Position numbers and translations under genes: made by a program
NCBI GenBank assembly: GCA_000442015.1
Contig: KE560785.1
Coordinates: 1 to 48,766 of the forward strand
DNA from: Rozella allomycis CSF55
Taxonomy: Eukaryota
DNA length: 48,766 bases
Direction of reading: 5' to 3'
The notes under the pieces: generated by a model
Databases searched by the model: none
The model's input: only the letters and a program-made list of their open reading frames with translations
Told to the model about the DNA's origin: nothing
Shown here: positions 10,434-39,183 of the stretch, in pieces
Numbering within the stretch: the stretch's first letter is position 1
Layout of the letters: every line of letters starts with the position of its first letter

Positions 10434-10593
10434 CGTGCAGATGAGACAGGAGTACAACGTAACATATTAGGTAGCCCATTAGTTAAAATTAGAAAACGGT
10501 TCTATAAATAACTATTTTTTTTGCAAAGTCAACCGAATCAGTAAATTATTTATAATTATTTGAAAGGAACTTGATCAATTTAAAACTAAATAT

Positions 10594-10760
10594 ATGACAC
10601 AAAAGCTTAGCATTGAACAGAAGATAAGCGAAGCCGAAAAACGAGTTCGAGAAGAAGAGGTAGACAAAAGAAGAGATACTGAAAATCAATACCAGTCACT
10701 TAAGCGGCAACGAGATTCCCTTCAACAAGAATTTGAGAATCTTCATTCCAGATATTTGTA
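10594..10760 (+). CDS. Short coiled-coil ORF, possibly a 5' exon spliced onto NF-YB
   Basis: MTQKLSIEQKISEAEKRVREEEVDKRRDTENQYQSLKRQRDSLQQEFENLHSRY; frame open back to 10567 after a 26-nt GT-AG intron-like segment at 10541-10566. Confidence 0.4.
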
Positions 10761-10808
10761 AAAAGGGTAACATGAGCTCCATTTTGTAATGCCCAAAATG
10801 CAAGCCAC

Positions 10809-11211: not shown

Positions 11212-13714
<2,503 letters not shown>

Positions 13715-13781: not shown

Positions 13782-15766
13782 ATGGATTTCTTATTGGCTC
13801 TTGAAGAAAGAGATCGAATTCAATCAGAACCGTTTGAATTGATTATTGAGTCATGTAATGCCCGTATAAAATTATCGTCTAGTTCAAAAACAATTCGCCA
13901 GGGGAAATGAATTGGAAAATAGAATCAATCTTTTGGAATGTATTTTGGAAGAGAGAGATGATGAAATTAGTAAATTGAAGCAAGATCTTAGTTCCGCATT
14001 CAAAAATGGGTAACAATCAGATTAATTGTAAAGTTTAGGGGAATTCAGTTGAGAAAAGAATTAAATGAGCTACAAGAAAAATATTCGATTTTGAATGAAG
14101 AAAGGCTGGAATTGTTCCAGCAACAACACCAAAGTACCCAACGTCTTTTATCCATGAATGATGAAATAAAGACTAAAGATTTGTTTGTCAAAGAGAAGGT
14201 TCAAGAGTAATCAAGTTAATGATTTTTTAAAAGAAATGATAGGCTTAAAAAGCAAATCGATGATTTAAACTATGATCATCGAATCTTAATACAAAGAAAT
14301 ACAGACAATGAGAAAACCATATTGCAATTGCGTGATGAACTAGTAATCATTAAAAATTACATTTAATTGACTACACTACAACTGGAGTTAATTAAGAGTG
14401 ATGAACGAATTCGATCCCTGTCGCAAGAGAATCAGTTACTTATTGATCGATGGCTAAATAAAATGAATGAAGAAGTGCAAACGATAAATCTTGCAAATGA
14501 AATTGCTGAAGAGTGAGTTTGCAATGGTTGTATAATTGTTAGGGTTAAAAGGAGGGCTCTAAAAATTGAAAACTCGGACAAGGATTTTGTACAGCTTAAA
14601 CGGGAAGATACTATTGATATGTAATAATCATAACGTTTTTATAAGAGTCCTATAAATTGTTCTGTGCCTACTACTCAATCACATGAATTCAGCCCTTTCG
14701 ACCATGAAATATCTTGCATTGCTCTTTCTAACGATAGTCAATACTTAGCGGCAGCGTCCTTCGAAAAGCAGTTAATTGTTTATAATCTCAATACAAGTAT
14801 TAACTTAGGAATTAAACTACTAGATGAACAATATATTAAGTTCAAAGGAGCGATCCAATCAATAACCGATGTGGAATTTTCACCCTTCGATGATTGTATT
14901 TTGGCTGCTTCAGAAGATCAAATGGCGAGAATATGGTCTTTAAAAGATGGTAGGTTAAAGGTATAAATATCTAAATGCCAAAATTAGTTGACGTTAACTG
15001 GACACTCGTCACGGGTTGGCGCTGCAAGGTTTATTGAAGGCGGAAATCGGATTGTAAGTTAGAATATAGCTTCAGCAAAGATAACTGGTAGTAATGATTG
15101 CACGATAAAACTCTGGGATTTGAAAAGAGGATATTGCTCCAGAACTTTTTATACACAATCATCATGCAACGACTTATGCCCCATATTCGGTTACGGGTAT
15201 CTAATATTCAACTTGATGATAGATTATCTTTTGCATCAGGTCATACTGACAATAATCTGAAATTTTGGGACTCAAGATCTTCGGAATGTGTAAAATCCAT
15301 GGACGATGTTCATTCTATGCCAATCGCTGGCGCTTTTGCATCCATCGGTATAAAAAATGACAATTATTAATAGACGGCAAGTATTTGCTAACAACCTCTA
15401 AAGATAACACGATCAAGCTTGTTGACCCACGAAAGTTTCAAGTCATTCACTCATTTTCACACGAAAGATATAATGTTAGCTTTAATCACGTGAAACCCGC
15501 TCTAAGGCAACTGTTTCATTTATGATTTACATGTAGCCCCGACAACTTGATTGCAGTTGCTGGTTCAAACAATGGAGCGATATTCTTTTGGGATGTATTA
15601 ACGGCGAAATCAATTGACTCTTTATCTTCACATACGTAAAGATATTTATTAAATGGAATTGAAAAGAAGTAGTTGCATTGGGGTACTATGGCCTAAGGAT
15701 TCCCAGTCAAGGCTGATTTCAGCAGAAAGACACCAAATCATAAAAATCTGGTCATCGACACATTAG
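13782..15766 (+). CDS. ATG16: ATG16L1-type autophagy protein (coiled coil plus WD40)
   Basis: Coiled coil LRDELTTLQLEL..ENQLLIDRWLNKMNEE; WD40 repeats (LTGHSSRV, GSNDCTIKLWDL, SGHTDNNLKFWD, SPDNLIAVAGS); 13 introns of 26-31 nt including one GC-AG and one probable GT-TG. Confidence 0.88.
14343..14369 (+). other. Probable GT-TG intron (27 nt) in ATG16
   Basis: cta|gtaatcattaaaaattacatttaattg|act aca cta caa ctg gag; contains an in-frame TAA; the first AG would give a 45-nt intron deleting TTLQLE. Confidence 0.6.
15507..15536 (+). other. GC-AG intron (30 nt) in ATG16
   Basis: ag|gcaactgtttcatttatgatttacatgtag|c ccc gac restores the WD40 SPD motif. Confidence 0.65.
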
Positions 15767-18087: not shown

Positions 18088-21452
<3,365 letters not shown>

Positions 21453-21468
21453 TCATCGATTTTAAAAA

Positions 21469-22706
21469 CTATTTATTAATACTGTTAAAGAAAATCTCTA
21501 TAATTCTATCGGCTGCTTGGGATGCTGTCAATTCATCATTTTCCAACAGTTTATCGAGAATAGGCTTGATACTTTTGACTTCACTATTTTCCTGTAACCT
21601 TTTGAAACCAGAATTTATATTTACATCCCAATCAATTGATTCTTGGCCATCCAGCAAGTCCATTTTTTCTTTTGCCTCACTCTTTTTTCTAATAGTTCCC
21701 CCGATTTCGTTTAAAATGAATTAAAACGATTACCACAGTTAAGAAATAATACTCATTTATTCCCTCCCATACTTCATTGATACCTTTTCCAGTTATAGAC
21801 GAAGCCATGTAAACCTATTACAAAAAAACACATTCTATTTACCTTTGGCGACCATACCTTTGAATTCCGTTTCATATATTTTAAGGCACTCAAATATTCG
21901 ATCTGTGCTCTTCTAGCAGTATTAATTAGTTCACCATCCGCCTTATTTACAACAACCAGATCACTTAATTCCATGATACCTTTCTTCATTCCCTAATAAT
22001 AACCTTCAAAATATTTGTACTTGCAATTCGTCGCCTCCTGCGGGAGGCACTAACAAGGCAAAAATATCGACCATATCAGCTACAAGAGTTTCAGACTGAC
22101 CAACACCGACTGTTTCTACTAGGATGATATCGTATCCCGCTGCTTCACACATGACTATTGATTCATGTGTATTTCTCGCCACCCCGCCTAATGTTCCTCT
22201 GCTTGGTGTAGGCCGTACATATGCTCTGTCTTGTCTTGAAAGATTGTACATTCTTGTCTTATCACCCAATATTGAGCCACCAGATTTTGATGAACTTGGA
22301 TCAACTGCCATAACAACTAAAAGATTAACACTATTACCAGAACAGCAACCTTATATCCTTCATTCACAAGAGACATTGCAAAACTCTCGATGAATGTGGA
22401 TTTGCCGACTCCAGGGGCTCCAGATAGTCCAATTCTAAGTGTTTTGGGTTGTTTATATGTTTCGACATCTAAGGCGAATCTCTTGCTTTTTAAAAACAAA
22501 GGCGGTCTCGTTTTTAAATTTTTGAGACATTCGGTTAATAAGAACTGAGAATATTTTCTGTGTTCCGCATTATTTGATTCCACTATAGTCAGTAATGTAC
22601 ACGATCAATTACCTAATGTAATAGATTTCGCCAATGCATTTCTGCTTCCATTAATTAAGTCATGGAGCAATTTTATAATATTTGCAGGCATGGTACCTTT
22701 GGTCAT
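21469..22706 (-). CDS. MMAA: MeaB/MMAA cobalamin-chaperone GTPase for methylmalonyl-CoA mutase
   Basis: [95 protein letters not shown]; six introns of 26-30 nt, two with non-AG acceptors. Confidence 0.93.
21708..21733 (-). other. Non-canonical GT-CG intron (26 nt) in MMAA
   Basis: gtg|gtaatcgttttaattcattttaaacg|aaa tcg ggg gaa cta gives [13 protein letters not shown]; no nearby in-frame AG. Confidence 0.6.
22309..22337 (-). other. Non-canonical GT-TG intron (29 nt) in MMAA
   Basis: ctg|gtaatagtgttaatcttttagttgttatg|gca gtt gat cca gives KVAVL-AVDPSS; the AGs at 21 and 33 nt are out of frame. Confidence 0.7.
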
Positions 22707-22762
22707 GTTATTGAATTTATTCATTTTCCTAAATAAAAAAATTCAAAACAAAAAGGCTGGTA

Positions 22763-23647
22763 ATGAGATCTCAATTAAGGCATCAGCCAACTAGACTTTC
22801 TGTTTATCCAAAAACCACAGTTATTGCATTTAATGGAGACGTAAATCAAGACATCGAACCAAAATCAAATGTCATTATCAGATCAATTAAGAAGACTTTT
22901 AAAAGTTGCTTGCCACGAAAAGATTTGAAAACAAAGAAAGTTGAATATGGTGTGATATCTGTCCACATTCAGCATCTATCGCAATTCTTTAATTCTTTTG
23001 ATCCCTCGCCTTTTCATGAAAGAGACATGGACTCTAACGCAGAAGAATTCATTTTAACATACGCAGATGAAATCGCATTAGATAAAAAGATAGAAAAATA
23101 TAAAGTTGAAATTGTTCTTGGAGAACTTCCGGATAGAAATGAATATGATTTTATTGTCTTGGGCGCCGAACTAGCACGAAAAAGCAAGAGACCAGTTAGT
23201 CCTTATGCCAGATACGAAATAACCAGCCCAGGAGCAGGAGAAATCGACAAAATGAAGGCAATACTCTCTGACGATCTTCAATTAGCCATTAACAATCATT
23301 TTGATTTCCAATCTCAGAAAGCCGATAACGAATTGAAAAAACTGTTCCGCACTGGAAGAACATCTTTGATAGCAGGTGTAATTATTTTGGTTGTTTGCTT
23401 GCTTGGTTCTGAATTCCTAACTTCGACATATTCTGAGGCCGACGGAAACATTACATTGTCATCAGCGAAAACATGGGCACAGATGGGACAAAATGCATTA
23501 CAGATTCTGGCATGGGTAAGTCTCTGGAGGCCGTTGGAGATCTTTCTGTTTAACTGGTTTCCTCTTTTGCAACATCGTAAACTTCTGAGAAAACTGAGTC
23601 AGTGTGATGCTGTAGTTAAACTAGCTAGTGAAACTAAAAGAGATTAA
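22763..23647 (+). CDS. Two-TM membrane protein resembling an uncharacterised prokaryotic family
   Basis: Intronless 294-aa ORF; motifs SQFFNSFDPSPFHERDMD..AEEFI and ILAWVSLWRPLEIFLFNWFP, which I recall from bacterial/archaeal hypothetical proteins; two hydrophobic helices. Confidence 0.7.
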   Translation: MRSQLRHQPTRLSVYPKTTVIAFNGDVNQDIEPKSNVIIRSIKKTFKSCLPRKDLKTKKVEYGVISVHIQHLSQFFNSFDPSPFHERDMDSNAEEFILTYADEIALDKKIEKYKVEIVLGELPDRNEYDFIVLGAELARKSKRPVSPYARYEITSPGAGEIDKMKAILSDDLQLAINNHFDFQSQKADNELKKLFRTGRTSLIAGVIILVVCLLGSEFLTSTYSEADGNITLSSAKTWAQMGQNALQILAWVSLWRPLEIFLFNWFPLLQHRKLLRKLSQCDAVVKLASETKRD

Positions 23648-23713
23648 ATTTCACATCCTGCACACTTTAATGCACTAAATAAAACTACTATTAACAAACT
23701 TTGAAATTTCAGA

Positions 23714-25316
23714 ATGACCAAGGACTTTAAAGAAAAACCACTTGAATATTTTTCTAGCATAATTGACAAGATAGATAAAAATTGCTATGAAAAGATAAAG
23801 AATAGCGTATCTAGCTTGTTGGGCGAAAACAAGTCGATTTTAGACCAAGTAGATTTTTAAAGGAAACGAAAATAGATTCCATTTCTAGAAAAGTCAACAA
23901 ATTCCAAGGAACTCTTTCGATTTAGAGCTCTAGTAGTCCATGACTCTTATGATAATGAAGTTTTCCCACTGCCAGAGATGGTGGAGTCTTTGTTTGCTAA
24001 TGCTGCTGTACAGTCGGACAAGGCTGAGTGGATGGAGAGAAAAGTTGTTCAATGTATTTCTATTCCCAACGTGTCTGCTTGGAACCATGTTCAACAATAT
24101 GATGGAAGTGTTCTAGTCAAGTTATATACCGACGAGGCTGTGGCCGTGTGTAATGCTTATGAGTTTTTGGGATTTCCATGCGAAGATGAACAGGGATTTA
24201 CTTTTCACGTGATAACCCTGCAGAAGCTTGAAAACGACTGTAACCATTTAATTGAAGCAAGTGGATCATTGAATCCAGAAATGGGTACTTTATATTTACA
24301 TTCAATATAGATAATTATTTGTGTAACAATCTCAAGACTGTTAGAAATACTCTGCTTTCAACTATTTCATCATATTTGAGAGGAGATGCTCTACTCTCAG
24401 AGTTGATTCTTTATCACTTGTTTTCCAAATTGTATGAAATTCAAAAAAAATTAATAAAGAAAGTTGAAAAAGGAAGGTTATATTGATTCTCTTAAATTGG
24501 GTCAATTGAATTTCAATTTGATAGTTGGAAACGAAGTCGACTTTGCTGAAAGAACCTTGTTTCCTTTATTGCAATTGCTGTTGCCAAAAGTTAAATATCT
24601 TTCATTGGATTTAAATGTTTTAAATAATAAAGCATTTGAATCTGTTATGGATTACGACAACGGAATTCTTAAAATTGGTGAATTATTACTTACCAAAGGA
24701 ACACATCTTATTGTCGATGAAACAAAACTCAATCAAGGTGAATTAAATGAGCAAGGTAACAATTTACTTAGTTTTGGATGAATAGGCATTAGAAACCTTG
24801 CACTGTTGAAGGATTTAATTCAACATCAAACTGTGATGTTCAATTTTACATTTCCAATTACGATTTCAACAGACATTCCAATTATTGTTGTGTCTGAAGC
24901 GAAATCAATGTTTTCTGTAATGATTATTCAAGTTTTTAGTAGATGGAACAATCGATTCAATGGAAACCAACTTTGGAGTGTATTGAAAAGGTTGAAGTAC
25001 CCCAGGATATGATAAATACTATAAGAGTATTTATTTCATTCTGGAAACATAAAAATATTGAATGGGATCATGATGTTAAAAAGGTAATTACGCCTATTAA
25101 TTGACAATAGAAAATGGAAGACTTTTTTGTAGAGAAAAGGCGTGAAACATCTAAATACAGCGCACAAGATTTTAGTAAACAATTAGAACTGTTTAGGTAA
25201 CACATGATTTGATTTTTAATAGATTAATGTCAATGTCGTATGGTCAAAGTGAATTTGTTGATGAAATATGGCAAGAATGTGATTTATTTTATAGAAAATG
25301 GCAACAATTAAAATAA
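23714..25316 (+). CDS. MCMBP: MCM complex-binding protein
   Basis: FRFRALV, SIPNVSAW, VLVKLY..YEFLG, LRGDALLSELILYHL, DYDNGILKIGELLLTKGTHLIVDETKLNQGELNEQGIRN; seven introns of 26-30 nt. Confidence 0.85.
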
Positions 25317-25325
25317 TAAATGCAT

Positions 25326-27126
25326 TTAAAGATTGTATAATTCGGCCTTTATAAGATATTCGAGGACAATGCTTGCGTTGTACGATTCTTTCAAGTCAAA
25401 AGAAGAAGATCTAAAAATCTTTAAGCAAAGACATTACTTTTCTTCGATTGTTATTTGAAAATCTTTATTGTTAAAACATTGAGGGGTTGTTATATTCGCT
25501 CCATGGTTTGACACAAAATTGGCGTAAACTTCAAGGACTCTATTGTCATTAATATCTAAATTATATTTAAGTCTACAAATTACGCTCATAAAATATTCTG
25601 AAGCCTTGATTTAGAATATTTTCAGGGGGTTGCCATTGATTTTGAAAATAAAAAGTAAATGATTTGCAAAAATGATTCAAAATAATTCCCTCGTCTTTTA
25701 TAGTTGACAAAATTGAAAAATAATTCTCCATGGATTTTGTATCATTAATGAAATAATCACAATATTCAGCGATATAAAGTTCTAATCCAGAAGTCCTTTT
25801 AAGAATGTCAATCATATCTTTAGATTTAAGAATTTTAAATGTCGATGAATAAAAATGATTCAACCATTTTTTACTTGCTGTCATATTCAATTCATTTTTG
25901 ATTATCGCCAAAATTTCCAGTGTAATTTGATCCATTTCAGGATTCAAATATTCAATTATCAAACTTTGCATCAAATTAAAAGTTATTTTTCTTTTGCGAA
26001 AATCAGTTATTTCTTCATTATGTAGCAATTTCAATGCTAAATCTCTTGGCTTGAATTCATCAACCAACAACTTTAAAAACTACTTTAAAAGTAACAGGAC
26101 TATTACTTTTAATGTTATTTTGCTGTTTAAATTCTCAAATATAACTCTGCACCGCGTAATGTCAGTGAATTTGTTCTCCATAAACTGGGGTGACAATTTT
26201 GTTATGTCATACAAGAATTCAACAACTTCTTCACAAAAATCAACGGATTTCAAAATTCTATTTTCATATCGAAATATAAATGCAACAAATTCTTGGCATA
26301 TCTCTTCAGTTATTTTCTGTACGTCAATAAATGTACGTAGCATCAATGCTATGAATTCCCATAGTTTTATCAACAAAATTCCTTGAAACTTTGAAATATT
26401 CTTAATTGTATAACACAAGCAATCTGAAACTTCAATTTGATTCTGATCAATCAGTTTTCTAAGTAATCGTCGTCTAGATTGGTTATTGAACATTTCTCTT
26501 AAAGAAAAATAATCAACTTTTACTTTGAGACTTTTCATAAATACAATAAATTGAAAATAGAGCTTTGTAAATATCAAACACAAGTTCCTTTTGAAATCCA
26601 GGCCTGGTACAGACTTTACTAAGCTCCAGAATTAGATCAATAAGTGAGCCATAATACGCACTTGCATTTTGTAAGTTCTGTAACACTAAACTTGATAAAT
26701 CTTTCGTTATTTGACTAGCAATGTCATTGCATCTTTCAATCTTTAACACTTTCAAGACCTGATTTTTCAAAAACAATCTTTGTACATTCTTTGTAATTTG
26801 ATAATAATCATATAATATTTCATTCCTAATCAACCCCTTAATTCCAAAGTTCCAAAAATTTAACAATACGACTGCTTGATTTTCATGTTCCATTATTAAT
26901 CTAAAGAAAAACTTTTCAAGTTTATTTGGCGGTAGTTTTCTTTTTTCTCTCAGAGTAAAACAACTTACGAATAGATAACCTTCATGCTCTCGAACCGGAT
27001 AGTGCTTTGCTGCAAAAGAAATTTTTTCAAGTTTTCTAATAATGTTTCCAACTTATTAATATTTTCATCTTCCAATGATAAAATGTCATTTATCAACGAC
27101 CAAAAGTCCTGAATTTCATTCTCCAT
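25326..27126 (-). CDS. Hypothetical alpha-helical protein of about 550 aa
   Basis: Six exons joined by five GT-AG introns of 27-29 nt into one frame from MENEIQDFWSL to KAELYNL*; no family recognised. Confidence 0.65.
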
Positions 27127-27290
27127 TAACTTTGTAAATTTCACAAGAATTGACAGAAACTTGTTTCTATAAATCGAGAATAAGTGTTAATTTGATATAT
27201 AATTGCTCTTCAAAGTAGATTTAGAAGAAAAAAGGTCTGTTATTATTTAAACAGTTTATTTAAGCACCTCTTTTTTCAAACAAGCTGTAA

Positions 27291-28775
27291 TTAGTTAAAT
27301 ATTTTGCGGGGAATAATTGAAGGAACGCTGCTCCACTTGGAAACGGAAGACAGTCTCTTCTTTTGTATTTCTAGAATTCTTTCATTTACATCTGTTGCAG
27401 CAAGCGTATTTACAGAATCCATTTTAGCGTCCAAGTTATTTTCAATAGAAGTCAGCGGTATGTCCTCTTCTTCATCTTCTACATGGAAGCCAAGGATACT
27501 GAGATCAAGATCTTCAGCGTTCATTTTCGTGTCTGCCATAAAGTTATATTTCCCATACCCTCTATTTGGTTTACTAATACCTTTGAGCGCTTTTGAAATC
27601 ACATTTTCTTTCAAATCCTCCTCTTTCGCTATCCAAAGAGCGTTGAGGTCTTTTTCAGTCTCATGCACCGACTTTTCATGTGGGCGAATATCAATGGCTT
27701 CCTCAAATGCCAATTTCCTCAATTCATACCCTTTTCTGCTTAATGAAGCATCACAAATATGCGTGCGATCAATCCATTTTGACGAATACAAATCATCAAG
27801 CCGTTTTTCATATTCCAAGTTGTTTGCTTTTTGAACAGGAGATATTGAACGAGGCACTTCATCGACAGGTTCTTGTATTTCAACTTGTTTGCTAAAATTT
27901 ACAGGCTCGGATTTTAGCTCAGAGCTATGGATAGAGTAATTGGACTGAATATCTTCCTCATCCATTATCCTATTGATCATGTTATTAACTAGCACTAGAG
28001 TTTTCAACTTGGTCTTCTTTGGGTCACATATCTTTTTAAATGAAAGCTTCAACAATCTTTTAGTGTCCAGGTCCACGATGCAAGAAAATTCTGATGAGTT
28101 ATCCTCAGCATTTACGGCTATCGATTGTCTGTGGTTTCTTTTCAAGTACTTCCAGCTTGCTTTATCTTCCTTATAAGGAATGGAAATTCGGCGAAGAGTT
28201 ATTAACTTTGGAAGTTCTTCATCGAATTCTGGTTCTGGAGAAGAAAGCCCATCTGAGGATATGCAATAATCCTCACAACGATTCTCGTCATCTGATTGCA
28301 CATCTACTCCTTTAAATTCCATTCTCAATGAAGAATTTCTACGTATTAACTTGCTGTTATCCTTTTTGAAGTCTTGCCGCGGAAAACATTCGTTTGGATT
28401 GTCATCAAAGGAGAAGAGGAAGACTTTAATTGTTTTGTCCCTGGAATCCAAAGATAGTGTTCTTTTAGGGAAGTATTTATGTCGGGAACTCTTTTCAGTG
28501 TATGATTGAGACCTTATCAATTTCGGGCGTGACATGTGAAGAAAAGATAGTGTTCTTTTTACAATTTCTTTTGGTTTTTCATTCAAATCAGCCTGAAAGT
28601 TTATTGGTTGCTTCGTGTCAGCATTATTAGTCGTCTCAAATGATTCCTCTGTGGAAGTTACAATTTCAGGGAGATTGATTTGTGGGTGAGCTTGAAGCCA
28701 TTCTTTGAACGCCTTTGGATTGGTTTTTGGGTGCACAGAATATGGAAGCCATAGTGTTTCAAATGCGGAAGTCAT
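27291..28775 (-). CDS. Zds1-like protein (PP2A-Cdc55 regulator family)
   Basis: N-terminal LWLPYSVHPKTNPKAFKEWL resembles the Zds WVPAxxHPxxxPxxF motif; LLKLSFKKICDPKKTKLKTLVLVNNM resembles the Zds_C motif; intronless. Confidence 0.6.
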   Translation of the reverse strand: MTSAFETLWLPYSVHPKTNPKAFKEWLQAHPQINLPEIVTSTEESFETTNNADTKQPINFQADLNEKPKEIVKRTLSFLHMSRPKLIRSQSYTEKSSRHKYFPKRTLSLDSRDKTIKVFLFSFDDNPNECFPRQDFKKDNSKLIRRNSSLRMEFKGVDVQSDDENRCEDYCISSDGLSSPEPEFDEELPKLITLRRISIPYKEDKASWKYLKRNHRQSIAVNAEDNSSEFSCIVDLDTKRLLKLSFKKICDPKKTKLKTLVLVNNMINRIMDEEDIQSNYSIHSSELKSEPVNFSKQVEIQEPVDEVPRSISPVQKANNLEYEKRLDDLYSSKWIDRTHICDASLSRKGYELRKLAFEEAIDIRPHEKSVHETEKDLNALWIAKEEDLKENVISKALKGISKPNRGYGKYNFMADTKMNAEDLDLSILGFHVEDEEEDIPLTSIENNLDAKMDSVNTLAATDVNERILEIQKKRLSSVSKWSSVPSIIPRKIFN

Positions 28776-29064
28776 GAAACAGGGGACATTGTTTACAAAT
28801 TTAAATTGCTATTACAGGAGCAACTCCGTAACAAAATATGTTTTCTGCTTTTTAGTTATATTACTTTCACGGCTTTCCCTCTTAAATTATCAAATAGTAA
28901 TGTATCTTTTTCAATTTCAACGCTATTTGGCAATGTGTCGTGTAAAAAAGTATAAATACGGAAATGTTGATATCTAATGACTAACCTTTAAAGAAAGCTT
29001 TAAAAAATTAAATAACCCGTAATGTAATTTTTGAGTTTGCTTTGTTTTCAAAAATAATAACAAA

Positions 29065-31506
29065 ATGTCACAGACTGAGACGATAAAAATTTATGGACGA
29101 ATACGTCCATTTAAAGTGAACAGAAATATTGCCCATGATCCAAACAATAATCAATCTAAATATCTCCTCGAGAAAGAAAATGAGGGAGATTATAAGAAAG
29201 ACAAACTGACAATTCAAGTGACCAAGGCTAATGCATTTGATATAATTAATAATCAAAAAGAAAAATATGAATATTTATTCAATGGGGTGTTCGATATGGA
29301 TGCGAAACAGGACGATGTGTTCCAAGTTGTTGCACAGGATGTCGTGGTAAGCAAACTAGAATCTTTTTCAGAAAGAATAGTGCTCTTGACGGATTTAACG
29401 GCACAATATTTGCTTATGGACAAACAGGTTCCGGAAAAACATTTACAATTACTGGCGGTGCTGAAAGATATTCTGATCGAGGTTTGATTCCGCGTACCCT
29501 TCAATACATTTTTAAAGAAATATCACGAGTAATTTGCAGTTTTGATTGTGAAAGAGAAAAGACTATTCTTATACTGTACAAATATCCTATTTAGAAATTT
29601 ACAACGAGAATGGGTACGATTTATTGGATGATACACGTGATGCTAAAAAATTGGAGGATTTACAAAAAGTATCTTTAATGGAAGATGACGATCAAGTAAT
29701 TCATATCAAGAATCTGTCATGCCATACAGCCAATAATGAGGAAGAAGCACTTAATTGGCTTTTTGTCGGTGATACTAATAGAATGATAGCTGAAACTCCT
29801 AGTAATCCCTCCTCATCCAGATCTCATTGCATTTTCATAATATCGCTTATTGCTCGCAAAATAGGTAGCGACGTAGTTTTGAAGTCTAAATTGCATTTGG
29901 TTGATTTAGCTGGGTCTGAAAGAGTCAGCAAAACGCAAATAGATGGAACTTTATTGAAAGAAGCGAAACATATAAATCTTTCCTTGCATTTCCTTGAGCA
30001 AGTGATTGTGTCGCTTCATGAGAAAAGTATGGGGAAGAGAGCACATGTGCCTTACCGCAATTCGATGATGACATCTGTTTTAAGAGATAGCTTAGGAGGG
30101 AACTGCAAAACAACTATGATCGCGACAATAGCCATGGAAAATAACTTAATAGAAGTACAACCTATAAACTTGGTACAATTTAGGAATCTCTTTCGACTTG
30201 TAGGTTCGCACAACGCGTGGCCCTTATTCGAAATGATGCGAAAAAGAACGAGGAAATCGATCCATATTTGATTATTGAAAAACTGAAGATCGAAATATCG
30301 CAATTGAAAGAGGAGATATCCTTACTTAGGGGTGGTGAATCATCTGAAGAATTGACAGAAAATGAAAAAGAAGAGTGCAGAGAAGCAGTAAATACGTATC
30401 TGAAAACAGGATTCGACATACAATATAGAGATTTTAGAAAAATTAGATACTGTTATTCAATTATTAAAGTACGGAAGATATAAATTGTTTATAGAATTTT
30501 ATTAACACATCTGGATCTACAGAAACCAATGCCAAAGGTTTTGGTGAGGTTGATAGTGTTCAAATAAAGAAACTTGAGCAGCAGGTTCAGCATAGGGACC
30601 AAGAGATAAGTACAAATCGATACACAACTATCATAGGCGTTTTGATAGAAATGCTCAAGAAATACAAAGCCAAAGACTCTAGTGTTGAAGGCAAAAAATA
30701 TAATGTAGAAAAAACTGTTAACGATATTTGGGCTCAAAAAGTAATTTTTTCATTCAATTATAAAAGACTAATGAACGTTCTGATGATGCACTTTTGGATT
30801 CAACTGCTAACAAAGCCAGAATATTGACTTCAAGCACGACAGATACCCTTCCTACCCCACAAATAACAAGTAATATTAAATAAATATTATCAATAGATAA
30901 ATTTTTGGACTTTGATGCATATCTTCAAGCGAGGCCTGACGAATCAGCAAAGCTTCAGAACGCTCAAAAACAAATGATGCAAAAAGTAGCATATGCTCGA
31001 TCATTAGGCGAACAATTAACATCTTTAAAGGATGAAATATGTATTTAATTAATGATATTTCATTACAGTGAAGACTAAAACAACATTGGAAAAATACCGA
31101 GCTAGTGTAGCTGTCAATCAGCTAAAAGACGGAAGTGCTTCCTTAGACCAACAGTCAGAAGAGGAGAAAATCTTAAGAATGAGGCTAAATGAAAGCAAAT
31201 CAGCGTAAATTTTTCTGACTATGTGCATTTAGTTACCAAAGAATTGTTGAACCGTTAAGAGAGGTAAAAACCGAAATTGGGCATTTAAAACATTCCATAG
31301 ACACGATTAGAATTCAATTGCAGCAAGGATACGAGAAATGGAAAGTGGAGAATGAACTTGCCGACAAAATTCAAAGCACGCAAAGAATGGAAATATTCCC
31401 AGGCGATTCAAACAAAAGTATCTTATCCAGACCCACGTCTTCATGGTCTGGTACGAGGAATAATTCAATCGTTATGAGACCGGGCTCATCTAAAATGTTT
31501 AAATAG
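29065..31506 (+). CDS. KIF6: Kinesin-9 family ciliary motor
   Basis: [98 protein letters not shown]; nine introns of 26-29 nt. Confidence 0.9.
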
Positions 31507-31653
31507 CAGAATAAATAATTTTATGGGTTCATTTAATTTTACACTGTAAATTTTCAATTCAATGTAATGATTAATATGTGCATTATGTCAATCTGTAGAT
31601 CAATTAAATCGGATTTTGTAATTTTCTGTTTGTTTCCAGGGTTTTCGGGGTAA

Positions 31654-32684
31654 ATGATGCGCGAGGCAATTACGACATATTTTATTCTATTTTTACTTTT
31701 TTCTACATCATCTGCCAATTTAACACAAAAAACTCTATATTCTTATGACGAAAACACAGCAATGGACAATTCTTTTGAATCCCTTTCAGCCAGAGTCAGG
31801 CGCTATTTCTTTTCATTATACATAAAAATACTTGAGCATTCTTATCTGATTTTTGAAGATTCTAAAGACCCGCAAAGAGATGTCACTGATGAGAAGGTGA
31901 AGGAAACGTTGGCACGCTACGCAAGACTATCCGCGGCATCATACTGCCGAGCAAACGCACTAAAAAATTGGTCATGTGGAAAAAGATGCATTCCAGGCCT
32001 TGAACCAATACATGTTATTAAAGGCCCAATACGTGCATATGTGGCAACAGATCCGAATGAAAAAGAAATCATTGTTTCAATCCGAGGTAACATATTCATT
32101 AACATATTTTAAAAGGATCGCAAACATTAGCAGACATGATTACAGATTTTAACGCGAAAATGGTCGATTTGTTGTTTGATGACATCAATGTGGGCAAGGT
32201 ACACCGCGGATTTTTGGCTGCATCGATTCCTATCATAAACGAGTTGAAACCAATACTTTTGGAATTTAAGTTACTAAATCCCGAATACAAGGTGACGATA
32301 ACAGGTCATTCCCTAGGCGCTGCGCTAGCAACCTTAATAGGCGTGGATTTGCATTTCACATCATTTCCCAATGAAAAAATATCTGTGTATTCTTTCGGCG
32401 AACCAAGGGTAGGTGATATGACGTTTGCGAAGAATCTGACGGATCTTTCTGAAAAGCTGAATATCTATCGAATAACACATGAATCAGATCCAGTTCCACA
32501 TCTTCCACCAGTCCGTCTTGGATTCATCCACCACAATGACCAGCATTTTGTAACCAAATCGAACGATCGAATATTTCTTTGTCCATTTGACCTAGAAAAC
32601 GACATTTGCGATGTGAAAAGAAGGATAGTTTCAATTATCCCGCATTTGAACATTCTAGGAGTAAATTTCGGGCCGTATTGCTAG
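31654..32684 (+). CDS. Secreted class 3 lipase
   Basis: Signal peptide; SAASYC, IVSIRGS, VHRGF, TGHSLGAALA, FGEPRVG, DPVPHLPP; one 29-nt intron. Confidence 0.92.
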
Positions 32685-32774
32685 GTCTATGCATTGCTAT
32701 AATCAATAAAGGGGCTTGTGTGCTTGTGATTTTGCAATTTATGAAATTTCGAGAGTTTGTTGATCCTAACAACC

Positions 32775-34390
32775 ATGAGTTTGGCGAATATTGGAGGCTA
32801 CAAGGTACGATTGTAAGTTGAGTTATATAGAAAAACCAGTACCGACCCGATGTGCTTGTTGCGCAGCGGCAGAAAGAGGAGATGGAGCGACAGAGGATGA
32901 TTGATACCACAAATTATTATGCAGAATCTGCTAGAAGAGTATATTAATGATTTTAGATTAATCAGAGTGAATTTGAAAAGAGTACAACGCTGGCGATTGA
33001 ACGAAACAATATCCGCAAGCGGTATAATGAATTGAAGCAAGAGGCTGAATCCAAGTTGGAAGAGAGGCGAGAAAAGTAATTTATTTATGGGTGTGATATT
33101 AGGTTGCGAGAGTTGATTAGACAAGACATGGCGCGATGGCAGCACGAACTAGAGAAGCAGGAGATGACTCCAGAGCAGAAAAGAGAAGAAATGCGTGAGC
33201 GTGTGAGACTAGCCAAAGAAAGAAGAGAATCAGAGCGCCAAAAGATTGTTGAAGAAAAGCTGGCGCAGAGATGGAGGTAACTGTAGGTTTGTTTTGAAAA
33301 TAGGAATGCGAACCAAGAGCTTCGACAATTGAATTCCAAGACGATAGAAAAGGAGGTGTTTTATGGAAGAAAGGAGCAGGTAGAGGAAAAGAAGAAGGTT
33401 GAGTTGCTGATGGCAAAGGAAAAGAAGTATTATGAAGATTTGTGGGAAAAGGAGCGGGAGAAGAAGGAGGAGAGAGAAAAGAGGGATTTGCGAGAGCGAT
33501 ATGAAAGAGACATGCGAACGATGAAGGAACTCAATGAGCAGATTGAGCAGTTGAGGAAGGCTAGGGAGGAGAGTAAGAAGATGCAAGAGGAGGAATGCAA
33601 GTTGAGGTTGCAGCAGGCGAAACTGATGGAGATGGAGGCGGAGCAGGAAGTTGAGAGGAAGCAAAGGGAGATGAGAAAACGAAAGGCTGAATTGGATCGG
33701 TATAATACGTATTACCAAGAGATGAAGCAAAAGGAGATGGAGCAAGAGTTGGAATTTGAAAAGAAGATTGTAAAGGAGATTATGGCGCAACATGAATCAG
33801 AGAAGAAGGATGTTCGTTTGGAGAAGCAAATGTTGATGAAGGAGACGCTGGAGTATTTGGCGTATTTGAAGGAGCATCAACAAAGGGAAAGGGAGAGAGA
33901 GATTGAGATTGAAAAGTTGAGAAAGGAAGAGGATATAAAAGTAAGGTGATGGTGGAAAGATGATAGATGTGGAGAAAGAGATTAGAGGTTATGGAAAGAG
34001 ACAAGAAGGCAAGACAGAAACTATTAAAGGAGGTAGTAGAAAGTCGACAAGCGCAAATTAAAGAGAAATGTAAGAGATGATGGATGAAATAATAAAGTGA
34101 AAGAAATAGAAGAGAAGAGGATGATTGTTAAAATAGAGCAAGAGAATTTGTTGAAAGAGATTGAGGATATTCAAAGGGAACAAAATGAGAAGCATTTGAT
34201 GAAAGAAGAAAATCAAAGAAATTATCATACAGTTTTGCAAGAGCAAATTAAGTATCAAAAGAGTTTGAAAGATAGAGAAAAGGAAACAGAAGATTTAGAA
34301 ATTGAATTATCAAAAGAAGCTGAAATGGAGTATCAAGAATTATTAGCAAAAGAAATGCAAAAGATTAACGATAGACTAAAAGTTCTTTGA
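32775..34390 (+). CDS. CFAP53: Cilia- and flagella-associated protein 53 (CCDC11, TPH-type coiled coil)
   Basis: LEERREKLRELI..TPEQKREEMRERV..RESERQKIVEEKLAQRWR..ELR matches the CFAP53 pattern; six introns of 26-28 nt. Confidence 0.8.
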
Positions 34391-34483
34391 ATAAACTTTG
34401 AAATTTAGATTTAGAATTTTAAGATTTAAAACTAGTTAATTAATTTATTTACTTGACTTTAAACTTTTTTCTCTTCAAACCCC

Positions 34484-37400
34484 TTAATTTTCAATTTCAT
34501 TCTTTGGAAGAGATTTTGATTTTTCATAAACAAAAGATCCAAGAGATTCCAAATTCACAACAAAATCGCCTTCAGTTTGAGAAACAAGACGATTAGTTTC
34601 AAAAGTAGTTTCATTTTTGTTTAAAACAAGATTTGTAGGACGAGAGAATAATTGATCATTTAAGATTGAAAATGGTTTCCATTGTTGAAAGATTGATTGT
34701 CTACCAAAAATGTATAAACCAAGTCTAGCTCTAGAAAGAGCAACAGTTAATCTCTTCAAATCTTTCAAATGCCCAACAGATTTAGTTTTAACAAGAGAAA
34801 GCAAAATATCTAAATGAAATTGAATAGATTGAATTACAGTCGTTTTGTTTACCTTGGAATTTATCAATTGTAGAAACATGGGGAATACCAAAATAGTTTG
34901 TCCAACCGCATCGTTGTTTTAAAACATCTTTGATTAATTCTTTCTGACCCAAATAGCTTGTGAGAATAGTAATTTTATCTTTTGGATAGCCAATCAGTCT
35001 CATGTATTGATAAACAGCAACAATGTATTCAGCTTCACCCAAATTCTGTATAAAGTGTGGAATTGGCTCAGTTTCACCTTTCCCTTGATAATCTTCAACA
35101 TTAATAAATTGATATTCAAATGCAAATCTTTATTAAATGAAATATAATGGAAATACCCTGGATTAGCTAGTGTAAATAACCCTTGATTAACATGATTCAA
35201 ATTTAAGAGATTATTGTATCTCCAATTGAATAGATTGGCTATTGAAGGACGACATCTTCCTTGTGAGTTTAATTGAATAAATGGAACACCAAGACGAATC
35301 AAACGATAAAAGAGAGACAATTCCATGTTAGAAAATGATTGTAATCCTCTGTGACGGATAATTGGAGGTAATTGATTATGATCTCCAATCAGAATTATTC
35401 TCTTTAAATGATTTCTATTCATATCATCTTTATCTTGTAATACTAGGGGAATGAATGATTCAATCTCTGAAACTTGTCCTGCTTCTTCTATTATCACTGA
35501 ATCATATTTAAATCCATATTTTATCAATTCTTGTCTCTTCAAACTAGCAAATGTACATGTCATGGCTATAATTCTTGCCTCTTTCATCAACAGATAATTG
35601 TTTCTATCATATTTAGTCTTTAATGTTTCAAATGGCATCAAATGTTCCAAATCATTAAACTTTCTTTCAATATAATTTATGCAACTATTCAAGGTGTGAA
35701 TAGAATGAGTAAAAGTAGTAGTAGAAGTAGAAGTAATTGCTTCTTCGCTTGCTTCCCTTGAAGTATTGAAATAATTCTTGAATGGAAAGATTGCTTCAAC
35801 ATCTTCATTTCCATCTTTAATCTTTTCATTAAACTTAATAATCAAAGGTTTAATATAATAAAGATAGAAATAAACAGCAGTCTCACAAGTAAACCCATGA
35901 TCACCTGGAATAGAAAGGGATTTAGCCAATTCATCAACAAACTTTAACAATTCATTCTTTTTATTCATAAAATAATCAACTCTTCCCAACTGTGAATATT
36001 TCTCTTCTATTTTCAATTCATCTTGTCCAGATCCCAATCTCAACAAATGTCTCTCCAAAACATCCTTTTCCGATATCTTTTTAAACAATGAATCCAACGC
36101 TTGATTTGAATGCGTTAATACTACAATCTTTTGGTTTGGATAATTCTTGTACAAATTATAAATCATTTGAACACAAACATCTGTCTTTCCTGTTCCTGGT
36201 GGCCCAACTATCAACGTCATCCCCTTGTTCATTCCTGACCTTATCGCCTCCACTTGATTCTCTGTAAATCTAATTTCATTTCTCGGTTTAAAATCTTCTC
36301 TAATCAACCTTTCTTCATTATACGCAATCGCTTCAATCTCTTTCTCTTTAAAATTCAAAATATATCCCTTCTTTCCTTCACACTCTTCTTCCTTTGAATG
36401 GATTGATACTTTTTCATTCTTAAAACTTTCAATCAAATGAGATTCATCAACAAATGTATCACAAAAGTTCAATAACCCTTCTTCTTTTATCTTTACTGAA
36501 TTTGGATCCCCATAACCCAAAATAATATCTCTGCTCCATTCTGGTAACTCAATATCTTTCTTCATCAACTCTCTTATACTACTCAACGCTCCCTTATAGT
36601 TATTATTCCTGGGCTTTCTTCTCATCACCAAATTAAACATTGAATACTCTCCATCTCTTCCATTCTTCAAATCATTCTACATCATTTTAATAAAACCCTC
36701 TTACGTCGTACTGATTAACATCCAAATAAACCTTCACAGTCTTGTAGCCTTCAATCTTTTCTTCACTCTCATCTTCAGCCTTTTCATACACTTCACATCC
36801 TCTAATCATCGTTATCCCATAATGATCCTTGAATGACTTATCTTTACTATACGCCGTATTAGTCTCGGGAGTTGCTTGAATAGAAAGCAACAACAACACC
36901 TCGTTCTGTCTAATACTCTCCCACTCTCTTCTTAATGTATCATTCAACATCGACACTGAATAAGAAACCTCGGCACACACAAAGCCTGGCTTACTCTCAC
37001 CCACTCTTGCCTTGCCTACATCCATAATCTTAAACGAATGAATAGGCAATGCCATTCTGCTCCATCCAGTAAACTCTGTATATGCACTAGTTGTACAAGT
37101 TGGTCTCATCCTCGACACAACATCCTCAACATCCATTCTCACATCATACAACGAATGCATTCTAAACAAATGAAAATTTCTCATCAAATAGTCATGAAAA
37201 CTCAAATACTGCAACGTCAATTTAGGCACAGGAAGTATCTCATCTCCAGTATCAATAGTCACTTGATCATTAAACAATATCTCTTCATCTGGATACAAAG
37301 ACAAATCATTAATATTCTCCATCTGCGACAATTTCCTTTCGTATCTTTGAACAATCACCTCAACTAGTATCTCTCTCTCAACTTTCACATCTCCAAATTC

Positions 37401-38290
37401 AGTTCTTATCCCCACANNNNNNNNNNNNNNNNNNNNNNNNNNNNNNNNNNNNNNNNNNNNNNNNNNNNNNNTCTTCAAAATAAAACTGCAAATTATCTCT
37501 CTCCCTCACCTCGCCAATATTGCTCAATGCCAAATCTTCCAACTCTTCCTTAAACTTTGAAAACGCCAACTTTTGAAGCTCAACAACCTTTCTCGTTTCC
37601 CTCTCATTCTGCTCCTCCTCACTATACCCCTCCCCACTATACTCATCAACAGGAAACCAAACATAAAAACACAGCGTCGCATGCAACTGTCTCAACAACC
37701 TATATCCCCACCAATAACCACTTACATCGCTTCAGGCACCCCAAACACTGGCGACATCTTGACCCGCACACAAAACTGCAAATCATCCACCAACGCTCTC
37801 ACATACTTGCGAGTAGGCAGCTGACTCAACAAATCATTGAACAACACAATCACATGCTCAACAAACGGCAGCCACTCTATCCCCTCAATCTCACTTCCAA
37901 TCACCCCATACACCCGCTCACAAAGCACCTTCAACACATCACACCGCTCATCCGCCTCCTTGACACTTTTATTATACCGCTTCCTAGCACCACTAGCCTC
38001 AAGCTCAAGCTCCAACCTTCTGCCACTCAAATGTCGCCAAATGCCAACAGAACACATCTTCAAAAGATCAGGCCGGATCTCCTCATTGTCAATTTTGCCA
38101 AAACAATGGGCTAGAAACTTTACTAGCATCACACTCTGCCCCAAATCAGTCGGTGATATCAACTGCTTCATAGTGCTCTTCAAAAGAATCGGCAAAAGTG
38201 TGTCGTCTTGGTACAAGTAGTAATCTTCTATTTGTTTATGCTATTTTAGTGGAGAAAAGGCGTTACTAGACTGACACTCTTCGTTTTCAT
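34484..38290 (-). CDS. AQR: Aquarius/IBP160/Cwf11 intron-binding spliceosomal helicase
   Basis: [108 protein letters not shown]; at least five introns of 26-29 nt; N-gap 37416-37471. Confidence 0.93.
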
Positions 38291-38584
38291 TTCCCTTGAC
38301 TTAGCCACTGGCTAGTTTGGTTAAAGGTTAAAAGAATGTTGTTTGTGTAGATTTTAAAGGTTGAAAAGGTACACTGTTTTGGGTTGCCGACTTAGGTTTC
38401 CTGCTTCTAGGCGGAGTGTGTTATCTGATCAATCTTTTATCATATAAGATGTTTTGAAACTTTGAATCAGACACTACACGCGAAATATTGATTGTTTATG
38501 CACCCAAAAAATCTTGACAGTAGATTAAAAACAGCTTTATTTTATACTATTGCTTGAAGTCTTGAAACATATGTTGATATGGGT

Positions 38585-38855
38585 AATAAAACAGCTCTAT
38601 TAATTTAACGCACATACCTTATTTTTTAATATTCCTATTGGGGATTTTGTTTATTAATGATTGTTAATTCGTTATATATCTTGCATGTTTTAGTGTGATA
38701 TGTACATACANTATATGTAAATTTGTAATAAAACAGCTTTATTGATTTTACGCAAAAATTATATCTATTTTTCACATTCCTATCAACGATTGTGTTCATC
38801 AACAGTTGTTAATTCGTTATATATCTTGCATGTTTTAGTGTGATATGTACATACA
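38585..38855. repeat. About 130-bp imperfect direct duplication around n38711
   Basis: taataaaacagct...ttgttaattcgttatatatcttgcatgttttagtgtgatatgtacataca occurs twice; the last ~50 nt are identical and the 5' halves have diverged. Confidence 0.65.
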
Positions 38856-39183
38856 TCGTAGTTATACAGCACGTGATGAGACGATGTGTATGTACGTAAA
38901 GCTATGTAGTTAACTATTATCTCTTGGTCAGAGATTAAAATAGAAATTTCTATTATTAGGTCTAGAAGGAGATCTACCAAAATTTGGGTCAGGTTCGGGT
39001 CATTACTTTTAACCCACTGTATCGGAACCTCGCATAAGATCAAGTAATTCATTCGAACAAGTCCACACAGGTGAGCATTCCATCTACAAAAAGAATCTAT
39101 TTTAGATCTATGGCGGAGTTATTTTTAGATGAAGCCACAAATAATTGGGAGTATTCACTGCGCCACACGTAAAAACGTTAGAG

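Follow-up and report, generated by a model that had tools for sequence, protein, structure and literature searches.

The DNA considered here is contig KE560785.1 of Rozella allomycis CSF55, a cryptomycotan that parasitises Allomyces (GenBank assembly GCA_000442015.1); the contig was analysed over its whole length of 48,766 bp and is called the window below. On its minus strand, at 21733..21708, a gene for a GTPase of the MeaB/MMAA family is interrupted by 26 nucleotides (nt) which open with GT and close with CG. It is probable that this piece is removed as a spliced spliceosomal tiny intron, the 3' cut of which would be set largely by distance and by a final G.

The MeaB/MMAA gene and its interruptions

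By homology the host gene of the interruption is that of the MeaB/MMAA (ArgK) GTPase, a vitamin-B12 helper, and the name MMAA given to it in the initial annotation holds, since the Pfam family PF03308 (MeaB) was recognised on three of its exons (exon 3 with 148.4, exon 2 with 49.4 and exon 4 with 41.9 bits, the cut-off being 23.1). The pieces of the profile are contiguous over exons 2, 3 and 4 (positions 30-67, 68-164 and 164-211). The homologue-guided model lies on the minus strand and comprises seven exons and six interruptions of 30, 29, 28, 28, 26 and 26 nt, four of which have GT-AG ends while the second ends as GT..TG and the fifth as GT..CG. Its 1089 nt of exons hold no stop and no frameshift. 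The features of the gene are listed below with the basis of each in brackets (HMM, hidden Markov model; X2 and X6, sequencing runs described further on).

22613..22724, minus strand: exon 1 (start codon uncertain; the public model begins at a later ATG)
22583..22612, minus strand: intron 1, 30 nt, GT-AG (homologue-guided model)
22338..22582, minus strand: exon 2, holding the P-loop GAPGVGKST (Pfam MeaB positions 30-67)
22309..22337, minus strand: intron 2, 29 nt, GTAATAG...TTATG, with a TG 3' end (Pfam junction, HMM scan, X2 contig)
22021..22308, minus strand: exon 3, core of the G domain, AVDPSS...GDELQ (Pfam MeaB 148.4 bits, positions 68-164)
21993..22020, minus strand: intron 3, 28 nt, GT-AG (profile contiguous at position 164)
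21843..21992, minus strand: exon 4 (Pfam MeaB positions 164-211)
21815..21842, minus strand: intron 4, 28 nt, GT-AG (homologue-guided model; 2-nt deletion at 21822 in X6)
21734..21814, minus strand: exon 5, ending ...YYFLTV (within the open frame 21689..21814)
21708..21733, minus strand: intron 5, 26 nt, GTAATC...AAACG, with a CG 3' end (sequence, HMM scan, X2 contig)
21625..21707, minus strand: exon 6, 83 nt, KSGELLEKR...KKKW (open frame 21621..21710; ungapped to the consensus of the homologue HMM)
21599..21624, minus strand: intron 6, 26 nt, GTAAAT...AAAAG, GT-AG (needed by every top-scoring variant; absent from the public model)
21469..21598, minus strand: exon 7, the last, with the stop TAG at 21469-21471 (in the open frame 21469..21720)

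A public protein found with exon 3 as the query and 100% identical to it is P0010, 'ArgK protein domain-containing protein [Rozella allomycis CSF55]', which forms a cluster of a single member. This public model reads through intron 6 (21599-21624, minus strand) in another frame, and for introns 3 and 4 (21815-22020) it has GT-AG introns of 37 and 43 nt as against the 28-nt pieces that fit the homologues, with the residues GMK and WSPK lost. To other fungi exon 3 shows an identity of up to 86%. In genome contigs and in metagenome contigs at least 80 matches each were listed for exon 3, all with 66-76% identity; the listed genome contigs were titled as bacteria, and no rozellid was among the matches listed. 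Protein fragments of 55-175 aa included none from Rozella, the best match being P0230 with 80% identity. Retention of B12-dependent enzymes by R. allomycis has been reported (PMC8085122).

The 26-nt element and its CG end

Exon 5 closes with ...TTA ACT GTG at 21734. The 26-nt interruption itself, 21733..21708 on the minus strand, is GTAATCGTTTTAATTCATTTTAAACG, and from 21707 the sequence continues as AAA TCG GGG GAA CTA TTA GAA AAA AGA; the C of the terminal CG is base 21709. The letters and coordinates quoted in the initial annotation were found as given, and its reading frames were recovered as well, with exon 5 in 21689..21814, KSGELLEKR...KKKW in 21621..21710 and the last exon in 21469..21720. 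The predicted junction of exons 5 and 6 is ACTGTG/AAATCG, and exon 6 is readable only when the interruption is removed at or near the CG.

With the ordinary GT-AG tiny introns of the contig, the census of which is given below, the element shares the GTAAT donor (it opens with GTAATC at 21733) and the modal length of 26 nt, well within their range of 24-31 nt. Both interrupt the reading frame, and the element is AT-rich and its removal restores a conserved protein, which aligns without a gap to the homologue HMM at 495.4 bits, whereas no GT..AG variant exceeds 475.8. The difference lies in the 3' end, which is CG at 21709-21708, in the window as in the DNA contig of run X2, against AG in all 61 census introns. 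The donor, GTAATCGT, does not show the extended 5' consensus of U12-type introns, RTATCCTT. The size of the introns also prompted the idea of a ciliate origin with TA-bounded eliminated sequences, which was dropped, the contig being from Rozella allomycis.

The acceptor must fall after the TAA that stands in frame at 21713-21711 and before the SGEL codons, which begin at 21704, and there is no AG inside this interval. At distances of 26-31 nt from the donor the bases are G, A, A, A, T and C, and the CG does supply the sole G among them, as had been stated. The next AG had been called out of frame, which holds for the first one (a 45-nt cut, followed by TGA after three codons) but not for the second one, which had been overlooked: a 52-nt cut, 21733..21682, leaves a frame open to the natural stop and is the one used by P0010.

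Homology scoring of alternative excisions

The HMM was built from 98 of the 120 listed homologues, with P0010 and proteins outside 300-520 aa left out. The homologue-guided model scored 495.4 bits; with the 52-nt GT-AG intron in place of the CG one it scored 473.5 bits, and P0010 scored 369.6 bits. The gain of 21.9 bits from removal of the CG intron bears out the earlier claim that excision of the 26 nt restores the conserved C-terminal pattern; the conserved C-terminal arm is present only in the model which removes this intron, where the alignment runs to HMM position 354 of 363. Around exons 5 and 6 each stop-free single cut of 12-69 nt was then scored with or without intron 6 (n=2265 variants). 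The pattern goes beyond chance: seven variants came out on top with 495.4-496.3 bits, all of them 26-nt cuts at most 5 nt away from 21733..21708, while the top GT..AG variant reached 475.8 bits and the median was 470.2 bits.

Two further putative introns with TG ends

A second odd intron in the same gene had also been announced, and the 29-nt GT..TG piece at 22337..22309 (intron 2) was found to fit this description. Its junction VAVL/AVDPSS is exact, with Pfam MeaB positions 67 and 68 contiguous, and in a scan of 2418 variants the 29-nt cut scored 495.4 bits against 471.7 bits for the top GT..AG variant, which is 23.7 bits apart. An internal TTTAG stands at +21, out of frame and 8 nt before the end of the intron. 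The predicted junction of exons 2 and 3 is GTTCTG/GCAGTT.

The third case lies in a different gene and on the other strand:

14343..14369, plus strand: interruption of 27 nt (GTAATC...AATTG) that holds a TAA in frame; the gene is ATG16-like, with a coiled coil and WD40

When the six residues that follow the TG are included, the match to the Pfam family ATG16 reaches 35.5 bits, as against 28.0 bits without them. Reading through the interruption gives 82 residues for 73 profile positions, and the excess of 9 residues equals 27 nt. The alignment to ATG16L1 chains starts directly after the TG, and the GT-AG alternatives of 45-96 nt delete residues which align to ATG16L1. The predicted spliced junction is GATGAACTA/ACTACACTA.

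Tiny introns of the contig

Introns were counted over both strands by a Viterbi parse based on codon usage, in which GT...G introns of 18-70 nt were allowed, non-AG ends carried a penalty of 4 bits and lengths above 31 nt were penalised too. The census comprises 61 GT-AG introns of 24-31 nt, to which a regional run added two more with AG ends; 54 of the 61 measure 26-29 nt, and 26 nt is the commonest length (17 of 61). At the donor, A occupies position +3 in 58 and position +4 in 41 of these introns, and a GTAAT start was found in 10 of a set of 44. An unused AG stands at most 10 nt upstream of the used one in 17 of the 61 introns, which means that taking the first AG is not the rule in this contig.

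Three non-AG cases proved robust in the window, namely the CG and the TG introns of MeaB/MMAA and the TG intron of the ATG16-like gene. Each of the three has kept its donor and its final G and is non-canonical at position -2 only. A general tolerance of NG acceptors, as the initial annotation had put it, would rest on these three cases in the window, one CG and two TG ends, with no GG end among them.

Other candidates were rejected. A 29-nt GT..TG piece at 10758..10786, upstream of NF-YB, was dropped, as the gene can start at a downstream ATG in its own frame. A 32-nt GT..TG piece at 12974..12943 in CDC48 gave way to a 29-nt GTT..AG intron which, in our reading, keeps the residues before Walker A. 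The non-AG 'introns' placed by the parser at 31546, 31618, 32675 and 41583 are artefacts in which neighbouring genes were joined, and its remaining non-AG picks are likewise joined neighbouring genes or 3-nt slides of AG introns. Upstream of NF-YB, at 10564-10758 on the plus strand, there is an open frame of 65 codons with a coiled-coil-like product; only the 29-nt GT..TG piece or a GT-AG piece of 47 nt could join it to NF-YB, and it probably represents a small gene of its own or an upstream open reading frame.

Comparison with sequencing runs

Four of the 15 listed runs (X9, X2, X5 and X6) were compared with the window over 19101-39100. Run X2, which is DNA and comes from a study separate from that of the best-matching run, covers 20228-22566 with a single contig at a depth of 152.5 and with 0 gaps. 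This contig differs from the window at 3 of 2339 nt (20480, 21894 and 22017) and keeps the window bases at 21708/21709 and 22309/22310. The check proposed earlier, whether base 21709 conceals a genomic AG, is answered by this contig, in which it is not AG. Nearby stretches of X2 show two forms at a depth of about 66 and 76, whereas the depth here is about 152, and this split suggests that the odd ends are present in both alleles.

Run X6 covers the gene over 21456-23728 with a version that is about 1.8% different (41 differences), among which is a 2-nt deletion at 21822 in intron 4. Run X5 has no listed piece across the site. Of the variants, 21894 is in our reading a synonymous third-position change, and 22017 and the deletion at 21822 lie in introns (22017 in intron 3), a pattern that fits a gene under selection. 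Clusters of differences were also met in other DNA runs at 19884-19965, 22840-23230 and 27544-28951, in places as two half-depth forms, which points to the presence of two haplotypes, diverging by about 1-2%, in the material that was sequenced.

Other features of the contig

The window has a G+C content of 26-41% and a few Ns, and Rfam and tRNA scans found no rRNA, tRNA or other Rfam family in it. At 18829-19051, in a POLQ-like helicase gene, there is a tandem duplication of 112 bp, the two copies of which are 96% alike; it has an N at 18940 and may be an assembly artefact; another N is found at 18260. The gene for the intron-binding spliceosome helicase Aquarius occupies 34487-38240 on the minus strand and includes a run of Ns at 37417-37471, where a 19-nt deletion is placed at 37417 by X5 and at 37453 by X2. 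Three genes for class-3 lipases (PF01764) are present in the contig, at 31654-32681 (plus strand), 45808-46596 (minus strand) and 47992-48747 (minus strand).

Weighing of the explanations

If the element is a spliced tiny intron, the pre-mRNA of MeaB/MMAA would be cut at the CG or within a base or two of it and ...YYFLTV would be joined to KSGELLEKR...; with the next 26-nt GT-AG intron removed as well, the conserved C-terminal arm of the GTPase would be obtained. In introns of 24-31 nt the 3' cut would be determined mainly by the distance from the 5' end or from the branch site, together with a terminal G, and position -2, being only weakly read, may drift from A to C or T. Several observations weigh against this explanation. 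Run X9, which is RNA, matches the window in short stray pieces only and does not cover the gene, and among the listed runs there is no RNA that matches the stretch. Run X2 may derive from the same culture as the assembly, and the differences listed for X6 give no reading at the odd acceptors. A YTRAY scan of the 61 introns revealed no consistent branch-site motif or distance, which leaves the argument from geometry loose. The AG introns of the census come from a parse that itself penalised non-AG ends and lengths above 31 nt, without a one-by-one check by homology. Non-AG ends are moreover rare (3 against 61, plus the two regional AG introns), and two of the three lie in one gene, which would also fit a gene going out of use. 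Finally, there is an open frame behind the second AG at 21682, and the scan is tolerant of small shifts: the 26-nt slides from 21738..21713 to 21732..21707 all score 495.4-496.3 bits, the GT..AA slide 21736..21711 stands slightly above the CG cut with 496.3 bits, and variants of 23 or 29 nt reach about 492.5 bits. Homology fixes the length at 26 nt but leaves the cut points free by a few bases.

The chief competitor of the spliced intron is a recently disabled gene, in which former AG acceptors would have mutated to CG and TG with loss of splicing, the introns would be retained or mis-spliced and MMAA would be heading to loss in a reduced parasite. This is unlikely. In its favour, two of the three non-AG ends of the window fall in MeaB/MMAA against 61 canonical introns, the third falls in an ATG16-like gene that a parasite could also lose, and no RNA among the listed runs shows the splicing. 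On the other hand, the 1089 nt of exons are intact and score 495.4 bits, with exon 3 reaching an identity of 86% to other fungi; random hits would be expected to spread over donors, final G, stops and indels, whereas only position -2 is changed; the odd ends seem, from the depth of X2, to be present in both alleles; and B12 enzymes are reportedly retained in Rozella (PMC8085122). More doubtful still is the view that the public annotation is right and that a 52-nt GT-AG intron, 21733..21682, leads into the third frame and a diverged C-terminal stretch. It has canonical splice sites, and beyond the AG at 21682 no stop interrupts the frame before the natural one, but it costs 21.9 bits, its 473.5 bits lie near the median of the stop-free variants, and 52 nt is outside the 24-31 nt of the 61 AG introns, allowing for the fact that the parse penalised longer ones. 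P0010 also lacks 17 conserved residues of the G domain after the TG end, with a score of 369.6 bits, so that the logic of GT-AG only fails elsewhere in the same gene. There is a small chance that a piece of 26, 23 or 29 nt is removed at other cut points (21736..21711, 21733..21711 or 21733..21705) and that its end is not CG. The scores just quoted speak for it, in particular those of 21736..21711 (GTGGTA...TTAA); against it, the preference for A at +3 and +4 of the donor suits GTAATC better than GTGGTA, and these other cut points end in A whereas all 61 introns and the two TG cases end in G, an argument which is partly circular as the census allowed G ends only. The GTAATC donor and the final G thus favour 21733..21708 among the cut points. 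Least credible of all is an error of sequencing or assembly at the C of 21709 with a true genomic AG: the window has Ns and scattered differences from other runs, but the X2 contig, with its depth of 152.5, matches it at both odd acceptors and has its 3 differences elsewhere, which makes such an error unlikely.

The observation made in the initial annotation is confirmed, and its interpretation as a spliced intron is partly supported, strongly so by homology and by the DNA. Its extension to the whole organism is more tentative. It is possible, at somewhat less than even chances, that the spliceosome of R. allomycis works with a ruler of distance and terminal G and barely reads position -2, and that a few per cent of its introns are spliced in spite of a TG, CG or perhaps GG end.

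Relation to known introns and significance

U2-type introns that do not end in AG have been described in human as rare exceptions, with GT-TG in GNAS and TSPYL2 and GT-GG in BANP; they are reported to be functional and sometimes conserved, and 184 such sites were reported in the transcriptome (PMC4176328). The term GT-CG has 0 occurrences in the text of that paper. Like the GT-TG and GT-GG introns described there, the Rozella introns have a GT donor in a U2-like context, keep the terminal G and are changed at -2. The human sites, in contrast, are 184 over a whole transcriptome and belong to long introns, whereas in Rozella there are 3 among about 66 tiny introns in one contig of 48.8 kb, known from DNA. 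In the S23 gene of R. allomycis, putative introns of about 30 nt with premature stops and without conserved motifs have been noted (PMC6349667). They come from the same organism and the same size class and hold premature stops as well, but non-AG ends, as found here, are not mentioned for them in the relevant parts of that paper. In the literature on Rozella introns, splice sites and RNA-seq no report of non-AG ends was found, supplementary intron statistics not being covered, and the text of PMC5701793 contains neither 'intron' nor 'splic'.

If the proposed reading is true, a fungus-related parasite on the branch leading to the microsporidia does without the near-universal AG in the splicing of a visible share of its introns, and it would offer a natural system for the choice of the second-step splice site in very short introns. 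Gene models of R. allomycis and of uncultured rozellids that allow only GT-AG introns would then be systematically wrong at such sites, as in P0010, where this restriction accounts for the loss of 17 conserved G-domain residues and for a wrong C-terminal stretch. Errors of this type matter even if the splicing should be inefficient, for such proteomes are used when early fungi are compared in their phylogenomics and metabolism.
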